Shown here in pieces: positions 1,611-28,200 of a DNA stretch of 64,000 nucleotides. A program made the translations under genes and the position numbers. Below the pieces are notes generated by a model. That model saw nothing but the letters and a program-made list of their open reading frames with translations. It did no database searches and had not been told where the DNA came from. Positions within the stretch are counted from its first letter, which is position 1. Each line of letters opens with the position of its first letter. The DNA lies in the IMG/VR virus record IMGVR_UViG_3300005662_000021, positions 1-64,000 of that record; one strand, 5' to 3'. Origin of the DNA: a virus. Its lineage: Duplodnaviria > Caudoviricetes.

Positions 1611-2039
1611 ATGAAAAGAATTATAAGATTAACTGAGGGTGAATTGGTTAAATTGGTTGATAAGTTAATATATGAGATTAAGGAAGATGGGGTTAGGGAG
1701 CGATTGAAATATCTATTGAATGAGTTAAAGGGGTATGGTTTAGAGGATGGGGATTATGCCATATTTGGTTCTGCACCATTAGTTGTTAAGGGGTTGTTGG
1801 ATGATGTGAATGATTTGGATGTGATAATAAAACCATCAAAATGGATATTTGGGGATAATGATGAATATAGGACTGAAGATATTGAATTTTTTAATAATTG
1901 GGCAGGATTTGACATTGATGATTTGATTGATAATAAATCATTTGAATACAATGGGTTTAGATTTGTAAATGTTGATGAGGTTATAAGGTATAAAAAAATG
2001 CTTAAAAGAAATAAAGATAAAAAATTTTGGGATAAATAA
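1611..2039 (+). CDS. nucleotidyltransferase-fold protein with shared N-terminal leader
   Basis: YAIFGSAPL...DVNDLDVII (GS plus DxD pol-beta-type NTase motif) after MKRIIRLTEGEL leader. Confidence 0.6.
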   Translation: MKRIIRLTEGELVKLVDKLIYEIKEDGVRERLKYLLNELKGYGLEDGDYAIFGSAPLVVKGLLDDVNDLDVIIKPSKWIFGDNDEYRTEDIEFFNNWAGFDIDDLIDNKSFEYNGFRFVNVDEVIRYKKMLKRNKDKKFWDK

Positions 2040-2108
2040 ATTCTCCCTTCGGTCGTAATCAATCCCCAACCCCTTTTTAAATTGATATATTTATATTAAA
2101 ATTAATTT

Positions 2109-2990
2109 ATGAAAATTATTATTAGTGAACAACAACTTCAGAGAATTATTAAGGAGTTTTATAAGAAAAAACCAAAAGTTAGAAGTATTGGTAAAGGATT
2201 ATGGGATTATGGTAAAACAGTAAAAGAGTTAATTATTCAAGAATTACAAGTATTTCTTTCAAAAAAACGAACAAGTAATTATTCAATGAATAGTGAAATG
2301 TTTCTCCAGGATTATGTTGAATATATAAATGAAACAATAATTAGACTTTTTAATGAAGCTTATATAGAATTTGACGATGAAAATATTGAAAATATTATAA
2401 AAGAAAATTTGGCTAGTATTGAGGGTAAAAAAATAATTATGAAATACCCCAAAAAATTGGTTATATTCAGATATGATGAAAAAAGGACATATTCTAATTT
2501 TGAGCAATTAAAGGAAGCCATAGATTTCACGTCTAAAAAATTGGATACATACATTAATGAAAATTTTCCTAATGATTTATATAATATGGCACCGACATAT
2601 AGTGGTCAAGAAATAGAGGATGAATTGACACAAAAAATTTATGATTGGGAGCATACAAAAACTATACTTGAGAGATTATATAATGACTATATTGTTAGTG
2701 ATTTGGTTGATGAACAATTATTTGAAAAATTAAAGGGTAAAAACTATATTGATGAGATATTCAAAATTATGGATAAAGAGATGGAAAAAAATAATTATCA
2801 AATATTCCATAAAATAAAAGAAACTGACCTTAAATATTATTTTAATATGTTCTTGGAGAGTTACATTAAATATTATTCTAAACGTTTCAATAAAGAAGAA
2901 CTAAGGTCGGACACAATAAATTTAAAGATAAATTTACCCCTTGAAATTTTAATGAGTAAAATATTTAATATGATTTATAAAAATTTATAA
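2109..2990 (+). CDS. hypothetical protein with shared leader
   Basis: MKIIISEQQLQRIIKE; 293 aa. Confidence 0.7.
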   Translation: MKIIISEQQLQRIIKEFYKKKPKVRSIGKGLWDYGKTVKELIIQELQVFLSKKRTSNYSMNSEMFLQDYVEYINETIIRLFNEAYIEFDDENIENIIKENLASIEGKKIIMKYPKKLVIFRYDEKRTYSNFEQLKEAIDFTSKKLDTYINENFPNDLYNMAPTYSGQEIEDELTQKIYDWEHTKTILERLYNDYIVSDLVDEQLFEKLKGKNYIDEIFKIMDKEMEKNNYQIFHKIKETDLKYYFNMFLESYIKYYSKRFNKEELRSDTINLKINLPLEILMSKIFNMIYKNL

Positions 2991-3000
2991 CTAAGATATT

Positions 3001-3040
3001 ATTCCCCATTTCTTATATTAGGATTGGGGATATTTTTTTT
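3001..3040 (+). terminator. intrinsic terminator (TCCCCA/TGGGGA family)
   Basis: hairpin plus T-run. Confidence 0.7.
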
Positions 3041-3145
3041 CTCTCCCTTCGGTCGTAATAAATCCCCAACCCCTTTTTTGAAAAAAAATTTGAGAATTTG
3101 AAAATAATGTATTAATTTTACGGAATTAATTAATCAAATACATTT

Positions 3146-25600: not shown

Positions 25601-26227
25601 ATGAATAACAATTTAGATAAATTAATACAAAAAGTTTTACGAGAATCTTTAACACCCCCAATGAGGTTAATTAAAAAATCTTTAATATCTGAGGAATTAA
25701 AATATCATTTGGAAAATAAAATTTCATTGAGTGAAAATATATTCAGAATATATTCAGAAAAATATTTTAAACTAATTAATGAAGTTAGAAATTTATACAA
25801 TGAAGGTAAGATAATGTTAAATGATGAGGATACTTGGTTGGTTGAATCCGATTTAGGTAAAAAAGTATTACTAGAAAATGGTGATGAAGTTTGGTTAGAT
25901 GCTCCAATGTATGAAGAAGAAGTTGATGAACTTTTATTTGAAGCAAAACATCACGGAAAGAATGTTAAATTAAATTCTCCCTTTAGAACACCTGGAGGAC
26001 CTAAGAAATTTGCCGTTTATGTAAAAACACCGAAAGGTACAATTAAAAAAGTAACATTTGGCGACCCTAATCTTAAAGTTAAAAATAGAAATCCAAAAGC
26101 CGCAAAATCATTTAGAGCAAGACATAATTGTGCTCAAAAGAAAGATAGAACAATGGCAGGATACTGGAGTTGTAATGTCGGAAGATATGCAAAAAAATTG
26201 GGTCTTAAATCAAGTGCAAGCTGGTAA
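25601..26227 (+). CDS. conserved large-phage protein
   Basis: C-terminal KLNSPFRTPGGPKKFAVYVK...SFRARHNC...AGYWSC module. Confidence 0.7.
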   Translation: MNNNLDKLIQKVLRESLTPPMRLIKKSLISEELKYHLENKISLSENIFRIYSEKYFKLINEVRNLYNEGKIMLNDEDTWLVESDLGKKVLLENGDEVWLDAPMYEEEVDELLFEAKHHGKNVKLNSPFRTPGGPKKFAVYVKTPKGTIKKVTFGDPNLKVKNRNPKAAKSFRARHNCAQKKDRTMAGYWSCNVGRYAKKLGLKSSASW

Positions 26228-26493
26228 TGGAAAATTTCCCCTTTCAACAAGAAATTATTGATGACATTAAAATCAGAACATTTGAAGAAAATGTTGATAA
26301 TGAAGAATTAAAATGGCATAGAGATAGAAAAGATAGAATTGTTGAAATATTAGAAAATGATGATTGGTATTTACAGATGGATAATGAACTCCCCTCCAAA
26401 TTAATTGTAGGGGAGAAATATTTTATCCCTAAAGGTGTTTATCATCGTGTAATTAAAGGAAAGGGGAAACTAGTGGTATCAATAAAAGAGTAA
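26227..26493 (+). CDS. cupin-fold protein
   Basis: WHRD...FIPKGVYHRV. Confidence 0.6.
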   Translation: MENFPFQQEIIDDIKIRTFEENVDNEELKWHRDRKDRIVEILENDDWYLQMDNELPSKLIVGEKYFIPKGVYHRVIKGKGKLVVSIKE

Positions 26494-26495
26494 TA

Positions 26496-27524
26496 TTACT
26501 TATTATATCTTTTCAAAGCATTTTCAGTAATAAAAACATATTCGGTTTCCTTAAACTCTTCTAAATTTTTTGAATTTGTATAAGACATTGCAGATTTTAG
26601 ATAGTCTTTAAGATTATCAACCCATTTTTCCAAAGAGTATTCAATCTTGTTGAACTTAGATATACCTTCAGAAGTAACTAATTTATCTTTACCCCATTTT
26701 TTTTGTACTTCTTTAGTACTCATACCTCTAAATTTCTTATATAAAAATCTTTTTAAGAATGGGTAATTGTTGAATATGAAATTTGAAGTTTTTTCACTTA
26801 TTGGGATGAGTTTATTAATATAGATTGGAGAAGATGATTCTAAACATTTATTCAAAACACCCCCCAACATAACATAATCAGCTCCTAAGGCCAATGCTTT
26901 AATAATATCATCATAATTTCTGAATCCACCATCAGCAACAATTTTTGTATTATAACCTCTTTTCTTTTTTATTTGATAACATTCTGAAATAAGTGATGCC
27001 ATAGGATAGTGAACACCTGTATTAGCTGAAGTTAAACAACCTGAACCACCACCAATACCAACACGGATGTAATCAACACCAAGTTCTGCAAACTTTTCAT
27101 AAGTGTTAGGATTTGCAATATTACCAATCATCAATTTATGTTTTATTTTTATGTTTTCAACAAAATACTTACATAAATCATATAATTTTGACATATGACC
27201 ATTAGCAATATCTACCAAAATTTTTTGATTTGTTGGGACTTTTTCGAAATTTTGATGGGAAGATATAATTATTTCAAAATCTGATAGTGATATTGAAGTA
27301 AACCCTTCATTACTATCATTAAAATATTCACCTCTTGGTAAACAAACTTTAAGATTATTATCAATAAATTTTTTGTAGTTTTTATGGTTAACTACAGTAT
27401 CCATAGGACTGACTATGATTGGTAAATTACCATTTTCGGTAAAAATATTAATTTCAGCCCTTGATGTTATTGATGAAATAGTTTCGGGAACTAAAGTAAT
27501 GTCTTTGAAATCAAATTTTTTCAT
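26496..27524 (-). CDS. GMP reductase / IMP dehydrogenase family
   Basis: SPMDTV, VDIANGH, VGIGGGSGCLT, ADGG, FRGM; no CBS pair. Confidence 0.88.
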   Translation of the reverse strand: MKKFDFKDITLVPETISSITSRAEINIFTENGNLPIIVSPMDTVVNHKNYKKFIDNNLKVCLPRGEYFNDSNEGFTSISLSDFEIIISSHQNFEKVPTNQKILVDIANGHMSKLYDLCKYFVENIKIKHKLMIGNIANPNTYEKFAELGVDYIRVGIGGGSGCLTSANTGVHYPMASLISECYQIKKKRGYNTKIVADGGFRNYDDIIKALALGADYVMLGGVLNKCLESSSPIYINKLIPISEKTSNFIFNNYPFLKRFLYKKFRGMSTKEVQKKWGKDKLVTSEGISKFNKIEYSLEKWVDNLKDYLKSAMSYTNSKNLEEFKETEYVFITENALKRYNK

Positions 27525-27573
27525 AATTTATTCTTTTTTTATAAAGCATAAATTAAAAAAGTGATAAGTTCAA

Positions 27574-28200
27574 TTAATTTCCTTTAAATCTTCTAACCAT
27601 TTTTGTAATAAGTTCTTTAAAAATAATACCTGAAATAGTTAATCCAGAAAATCCAATAACTCTAACTACCAATTGTTTTAAATCAAAACCATTAACTAAT
27701 CCATCAGTTGTCATTTGATAGATAATTGGAATTAAAGGAATTATAAATGTGTAACTCATCATATTTGTTACCCTATGAAAGAGTACACCCAAACTTTCTA
27801 TAAACTCCAAAAATGTACGTTTTAATTCATCACTTTTTCTAATAACTTTTTCAAATGTTTTACTTAGACCTTCTTGTTGAATTTTATCTGATATTTTTTT
27901 GATTAATTCTTTATTTTCAAAGAAATAAGTTGAGATAACTCCAATCAATATTAATGTAACTTCCATATCAGATAAACTTGGGAATCTACCTCTTACAAAA
28001 CTTTCAATAGGACCTATGAAACCACCAATACCCGCACCCCAAGTTAATAAGAATTGAAGATTCATCCCAATTTGACCTTGGGCTTCTTCAATAAGTTTTT
28101 TTACCCTTTCAGCATTCTGTTTAATAATATTACCTAGTTCTTCTCCACTACTTTCTAGTAATATCATTCGTTTTTGACTTTCTGTTATTAGTATTCTCAT
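27574..28200 (-). CDS. membrane protein with shared leader
   Basis: MRILITESQKRMILLE; several TM segments. Confidence 0.65.
   Translation of the reverse strand: MRILITESQKRMILLESSGEELGNIIKQNAERVKKLIEEAQGQIGMNLQFLLTWGAGIGGFIGPIESFVRGRFPSLSDMEVTLILIGVISTYFFENKELIKKISDKIQQEGLSKTFEKVIRKSDELKRTFLEFIESLGVLFHRVTNMMSYTFIIPLIPIIYQMTTDGLVNGFDLKQLVVRVIGFSGLTISGIIFKELITKMVRRFKGN

Follow-up and report, generated by a model that had tools for sequence, protein, structure and literature searches.

A modular N-terminal leader on unrelated proteins of AT-rich jumbo phages as a candidate capsid-targeting propeptide

The 64,000-nucleotide stretch of viral DNA analysed here (the window; positions 1 to 64,000 of the IMG/VR record IMGVR_UViG_3300005662_000021) is AT-rich (~29 % GC), forms part of a 295,135-bp metagenome contig of an uncultured lake phage, and encodes a series of otherwise unrelated proteins which open with related short N-terminal leaders. 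The main leader, hereafter the type A tag, comprises 23 residues, MKKIIRLTE[SN]DLx[KR][IL]VKRVIxEQ, and belongs to a modular family whose members are exchanged on homologous proteins in a lineage of jumbo phages with T4-type head genes. On balance, the leaders probably represent a capsid-targeting propeptide system of the kind found in phage T4, much expanded and comprising several families.

Across 144 unique tags the sequence logo reads M-K-K-[IV]-[IV]-R-L-T-E-S-D-L-x-[RK]-[IL]-V-K-R-V-I-x-E-Q, with the information content falling to background at residue 24, directly past Q23. Each tag contains two [LI]-x-Glu motifs, L7-T8-E9 and I20-x-E22, which are almost invariant (L7 99 %, E9 100 %, I/V/L20 99 %, E22 99 %), and neither glutamate is ever replaced by aspartate, whereas position 11 mixes D and E. 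The 101 leader genes comprise 98 distinct leader DNAs, in which synonymous codons vary freely and both serine codon families are used; since the peptide is kept throughout this variation, selection acts on the leader peptide. In an AlphaFold2 model of the 335-aa window protein, residues 9–21 are helical at low confidence and are followed by low-confidence coil to residue ~48, the model of this cargo protein as a whole being poor (pLDDT 57).

An earlier note on the window had described fourteen leader-bearing genes, in two forms with additional variants. Each of the fourteen coordinates opens an open reading frame (ORF) with the N-terminus as described (Table 1), and the bodies are unrelated as claimed, with no mutual BLASTP match at E < 0.01 when compared from residue 25 on. 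A hidden Markov model (HMM) built from the genes at 1611, 4946, 5745, 16549(-), 25250(-), 2109, 7181 and 7639 recovered the eight tightest copies at E ≤ 2e-7 in the six-frame translation of the 64 kb; the next-best matches were 12496(-) (E 0.13) and 13327 (E 0.31), and no copy was found by this model between 30 and 64 kb. While the N-termini were thus as reported, the grouping was not retained, and four types are distinguished here, namely type A (1611, 4946, 5745 and 16549(-), with 25250(-) as a variant), type B, which equals type A minus 'RL' (2109, 7181, 7639 and 28200(-)), type C ([IL]I[ST]ExE[KR]xxIxxLY; 10748(-), 12496(-) and 13327) and type D (6360 and 29295). The former second form and variants belong to further leader families, which are exchanged on homologous bodies. 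Among the functions proposed for the bodies, the GH24 lysozyme was confirmed (Pfam PF00959, E 6.5e-26) and the nucleotidyltransferase (NTase) is a good lead, but the M15 peptidase and GH108-like assignments are weak, and the label of membrane protein corresponds to a single strong hydrophobic stretch. PDB sequence searches with three of the bodies were uninformative. The N-termini of the genes at 30122, 30395 and 31753 (window 30122-33096) resemble further leader families of relatives (…ISLM.+F…, …LLM.Y…KTLTEN).

A metagenome protein search with residues 1–40 of the 335-aa protein returned leaders which were mostly 76–91 % identical on unrelated bodies, while a pattern scan of IMG/VR gave at least 590 tag matches (412 confirmed among the matches listed) and a profile search against 1.84 billion cluster representatives recovered 7,746 protein clusters (50 % identity) with the tag at E ≤ 0.001. 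Within the fetched loci, 208 of 223 tag hits start exactly at Met1, and the 144 unique tagged proteins (median length 138 aa) group by body into 113 clusters; of the representatives of these clusters, 109 had no match in Pfam, and almost none matched PHROGs. Between eight and twelve type A copies are present per genome in five near-complete genomes. Unbiased clustering of N-termini, in which only pairs with unrelated bodies were kept, returned type A and the further families B to H, including B (MK[YI][IL]ITESQL), D (…S.EE[KR]N.I…H), E, F, G and H. Many of these families finish in hydrophobic-x-E-Q ahead of a linker. When type A proteins were excluded, [LIV]xEQ was observed 71 times at residues 11–35 against 16.9 expected, counts that are not independent events because the leader families are interrelated. 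Types B and C carry an I-[TS]-E motif (E at 96 %).

The modularity of the leaders is evident from their exchange. Two adjacent paralogues in locus L008 are ~90 % identical from three residues past 'EQ', with one carrying a type A and the other a type D leader. Among homologues of the GH24 lysozyme, some have a type A or a type B leader, some a different leader and some no leader at all, and a conserved structural-module gene carries leader A, H or a B-like form; a homologue of the 7639 body bears a type F leader, and one of the 12496(-) body exists without a leader. Some database proteins (P0162, P0164 and P0258) contain a second, internal tag without Met, resulting in a leader-body-leader-body layout. 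Such internal copies argue against signal-peptide or degron readings and would suit either a helix used for docking or a processing site of the polyprotein type.

Several of the bodies resemble cell-wall enzymes, with GH24 confirmed and with motifs of the M15 and YkuD kinds, as would suit a signal for export or membrane targeting by which they leave the cytoplasm during infection, and a YkuD-like body with an SxGC motif has either the type A tag or a hydrophobic, signal-like N-terminus (L010:7557-9029 versus L010:9059-9895 and L081:84-926). However, the logo places charges at positions 2, 3, 6, 9, 11, 14, 17, 18 and 22, one every 2–4 positions, and the tag lacks the unbroken hydrophobic core that follows the basic N-region in Sec, Tat or lipoprotein signals. 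The tag is also borne by bodies of cytoplasmic type, among them the NTase-like protein, it is nearly absent from 185,579 cellular genomes, and together with the internal copies these features render an export role very improbable. A degradation or chaperone-recognition signal that times early or late effector activity could make use of the basic hydrophobic start of the tag, and an Hsp70 is encoded in the window, but the 23 conserved residues exceed the needs of known degrons and the internal copies are again contrary, making this the least credible of the explanations considered. Phage Hsp70 was rejected as the partner of the tag, as it is present in only 2/5 tagged genomes.

The phage's own head genes were reached by walking along an overlapping contig. 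A JGI contig, 99.95 % identical over an 11.9-kb overlap, extends the window to terminase, Portal_T4, Peptidase_S77, DUF4494, scaffold-like and capsid genes, with the portal, gp21-type prohead protease, scaffold and capsid protein genes located ~10–18 kb beyond the window; a homologue search with the protease of a relative did not reveal this phage's copy. T4-type head machinery is thus encoded by the same phage as the leaders. Peptidase_S77 occurs in 5/5 near-complete relatives and 17/49 fragments, and the protease has counterparts, at ≤43 % identity, among the head maturation proteases of 2,521 T4-like phages in GenBank. Between the protease and capsid genes lies an acidic scaffold-like gene without a family match. 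A 64-aa ribosomal protein S21 homologue is encoded on the opposite strand within the head module (L097:10714-10908 (-)) and is conserved in relatives (L089-L093).

In T4, gp21 cuts after L/I-X-E, an Asp in the cut position prevents processing while leaving targeting intact, and the first ten residues of IPIII are sufficient for packaging (PMC9026906). The tag has the features of such a propeptide, being short, N-terminal and common to unrelated proteins, with a [LI]-x-Glu motif and a gp21-family protease in the same genome. The earlier proposal that the leaders target proteins to the capsid is hence supported in part, by the protease, the T4-type head genes, the two [LI]-x-E motifs, the sharp leader boundary, the leader swaps and a shared promoter-like motif. 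In the proposed mechanism, the basic hydrophobic start and amphipathic helix of the tag would dock a protein made late in infection to the core of the prohead during assembly, and the gp21-type protease would remove the tag by cutting after L7-T8-E9 and I20-x-E22. The freed body would then remain in the head and enter the next host with the DNA. By means of several interchangeable leader families, one large and fast-changing cargo set, including peptidoglycan hydrolases and the NTase-like protein, could be loaded. Docking, cleavage and ejection are all inferred steps.

A number of observations weigh against this propeptide system. The tag is 23 residues long with ~85 % identity, compared to ten residues in T4, and a cut site alone leaves its strongly conserved basic helix unexplained. 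The bodies are both acidic and basic, whereas the T4 internal proteins are basic, and the cargo list would be large, as 33/355 ORFs (~9 %) bear some leader in a complete 321-kb relative. The best hhalign match between leader and scaffold (scaffold residues 36–53, E 0.13) is not significant; a complex prediction with scaffold and leader alignments scored 0.00, which speaks neither for nor against binding. Searches of GenBank phages (megablast, tblastn) gave no close match to the window and no cultured relative with the tag. Finally, Peptidase_S77 was not found in the single Prevotellaceae genome bin searched, although the tag is kept there.

The main rival to the propeptide is a retained, uncleaved docking or oligomerisation helix, tethering proteins to a common partner, for instance another component of the virion, a factory for replication or assembly, or a host protein conserved in Bacteroidota. 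Nearly all helix positions are conserved, including the basic residues, with only positions 13 and 21 free, which fits a buried interface, and both the internal tag copies and the retention of the tag by a Bacteroidales family, for which the bin searched yielded no head protease, would be in keeping with it. Such a helix leaves unexplained, however, that unrelated leader families all end in hydrophobic-x-E-Q, that Asp is absent at either Glu, and that all tagged contigs derive from a lineage with a gp21-type protease, and is considered unlikely. The strict DNA pattern of the tag occurs at only four places in the cellular genomes. Two are located on short contigs of AT-poor to moderate composition inside genome bins, one of which (GC 31 %) is phage-like in appearance, and a third is internal and chance-like. 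The fourth is a 203-aa Prevotellaceae protein, encoded by a 56 % GC gene in an ordinary chromosomal neighbourhood. Members of this rumen and gut Bacteroidales family (~200 aa) start with MKQ[IV]IRLTESD[LI]HxIVK[QR]VIxE, a type A tag, and a second member adjoins genes for a VapE-like primase and for IS605 TnpB. In this family the tag may have been captured from a phage, may mark a satellite-like element or may serve a role unconnected with capsids.

The motif ATATTTAT, which the earlier note had placed upstream of most leader genes, precedes 11/14 of them in the window, where it occurs in 37 copies versus 18.8 ± 4.5 in shuffles. It is found upstream of 61 % of leader genes versus 23 % of other genes, mostly 14–17 nt before the ATG, and in this phage as well as in its relatives it also precedes the genes for terminase, protease and scaffold; it may be a late promoter. 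Terminator-like hairpins are enriched, several directly upstream of ATATTTAT, and the hairpin and motif at 4881..4931 form a typical cassette ahead of leader genes. The ~40 nt upstream of 1611 and 2109 are near-identical (1565-1610, 2063-2108), with CCCCAACCCC, a T-run and then TGATATATTTATATTAAAA, and this repeat looks like a terminator/promoter cassette. These elements, together with a swap junction just past the leader and the precedent of the PeSL elements (PMC2839356, PMC4122927), would accord with a gene-start cassette in which terminator, promoter and first codons are kept mainly as recombination or expression modules. This explanation appears hardly tenable, as synonymous sites are free while the peptide is kept, even across Ser codon families, and the peptide is retained in the 56 % GC Prevotellaceae gene. 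The DNA-level conservation of a non-coding element that characterises PeSL is not seen in the leader coding DNA, which varies synonymously.

The tag-bearing lineage consists of AT-rich jumbo phages of ~300 kb, a genome size pointed to by CheckV completeness values, with a GC content of 27–34 % in 78/78 fetched tag-bearing loci, and their hosts probably belong to the Bacteroidota. Host-like genes are intermixed with the tagged genes at 17351-27524 of the window (Table 1). DUF6576 was sought in the window proteins tested and was not found.

Table 1. Leader genes, regulatory elements and other features of the window, with head genes beyond it and tagged Bacteroidales proteins (L-prefixed positions refer to other loci)
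Feature	Position	Strand	Remarks
Type A leader (first 23 codons) and NTase-like body, 142 aa	1611..2039	+	Atlas score 0.96, TM 0.77
Type A leader, linker and GH24 lysozyme, 253 aa	4946..5707	+	PF00959 at aa 123-247
Type A leader and acidic ORFan body, 140 aa	5745..6167	+	
Type A leader (nearest consensus) and ORFan body, 335 aa	15542..16549	-	Start agrees with that of the 335-aa gene in public assemblies
Variant type A leader (MRKFTITESELRKIVRKTILEQ) and body, 175 aa	24723..25250	-	Homologous bodies have other leader variants
Type B leader (MKIIISEQQL...) and body, 293 aa	2109..2990	+	
Type B leader and acidic body, 153 aa	7181..7642	+	
Type B leader and acidic body, 150 aa	7639..8091	+	Start overlaps end of upstream gene
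Type B-like leader (MRILITESQK) and body, 208 aa	27574..28200	-	Hydrophobic stretch aa 176-195
Type C leader, Ser-rich linker and possible peptidoglycan-hydrolase body, 275 aa	9921..10748	-	GH108/VgrG3-like, weak Atlas lead only
Type C leader, Ser-rich linker and weak M15-like body, 432 aa	11198..12496	-	PF13539, E 7.6e-4, under cut-off
Type C leader and body, 100 aa	13327..13629	+	
Type D leader (MKHLLNELSDSEKQRILGQY) and protein, 81 aa	6360..6605	+	
Type D-like leader (…SQAERNNILDQH) and body, 171 aa	29295..29810	+	
Family F leader (…ERNILLEKKYILEQ, then Pro-rich linker)	9573..9917	+	Absent from earlier note; N-terminus-only cluster of 11
Family H leader (…LIQKVLRESL)	25601..26227	+	Absent from earlier note
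Terminator-like hairpin	4881-4914	+	Followed by ATATTTAT at 4924-4931, 14 nt before 4946 start
Further ATATTTAT copies	1588, 2087, 5709, 13313, 29273	+	
Further ATATTTAT copies	10765, 12512, 16566, 25265, 28206	-	
GH19 endolysin with peptidoglycan-binding domain; histidine kinase and receiver; class II aminoacyl-tRNA synthetase-like gene	within 17351-27524		
Hsp70; metallophosphatase; IMPDH/GMP-reductase-like gene	within 17351-27524		
FKBP	12540-12965		
T4-type portal, 914 aa, with intein	L097:7235-9979		Pfam Intein_splicing and Portal_T4
Peptidase_S77 prohead protease	L097:11488-12207		PF03420
Prevotellaceae tagged protein	L120:165-776		Second family member L121:8001-8615

Should the leaders be a packaging signal, sequence alone would list the proteins injected by a very common group of lake phages. 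The cargo, mostly without annotated function, would likely include host-takeover or anti-defence factors, and thousands of ORFans would be placed in a defined functional class. The T4 targeting principle would extend to jumbo phages, and foreign proteins could be directed into capsids by a compact 23-residue tag. The leader swaps also illustrate how a cargo set evolves through module exchange. More tentatively, and with some doubt, the leaders could be seen as a combinatorial address system, in which interchangeable protease-site leaders load ~30 proteins per genome (~9 % of ORFs) into the heads of abundant freshwater jumbo phages. These proteins would come from thousands of families, most of them unknown, and would include cell-wall enzymes and nucleotidyltransferases. 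If true, this repertoire of injected proteins would far exceed any other known in size and would be readable directly from sequence. Bacteroidales mobile elements may also use the tag to bring proteins of their own into the capsids of helpers. No published description was found in the literature, with no paper containing 'LTESDL' and none linking a capsid-targeting sequence to metagenomic phages of this kind.

As with the T4 capsid-targeting sequence (MKTYQEFIAE), which is carried by IPI, IPII, IPIII and Alt and removed by gp21, the leader is a modular and exchangeable N-terminal tag on unrelated, fast-evolving proteins and finishes in L/I-x-Glu. Both systems combine a gp21-family protease with the head gene order portal ... 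protease, scaffold, capsid protein, and the T-even internal proteins are likewise diverse, with the capsid-targeting sequence as their sole common part (PMC3012670). Unlike in T4, the longer tag contains two candidate cut sites and stays ~85 % identical throughout a phage lineage, a minimum of four to eight leader families coexist, and each genome holds 8–12 type A copies and ~30 tagged genes rather than a handful. The cargo includes cell-wall enzymes, and the system is known from sequence data only. No sequence homology is detectable between the two tags, both of which are too short for a test. The head and ejection propeptides of phiKZ, 201phi2-1 and SPN3US contain multiple cut sites, and paralogues sometimes have identical N-termini (PMC5694885). 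These are likewise jumbo phages, in which numerous internal head proteins are cleaved after Glu, but they belong to a different lineage, their propeptides mostly exceed 100 residues and are not a single shared short tag, and their gp175/gp245-type proteases cut S/A/G-x-E, with a small residue at P3 and not Leu/Ile. The cargo-loading peptides of encapsulins resemble the tag as short transferable peptides that send diverse cargo into an HK97-fold shell. They are, however, usually C-terminal, bind the shell directly without removal by a protease, and serve cellular nanocompartments and not virions. As in the PeSL promoter-terminator cassettes of T4-type phages, regulatory cassettes flank variable ORFans and mark shuffling junctions, but while PeSL is non-coding DNA, the conserved element here is a peptide under protein-level selection.

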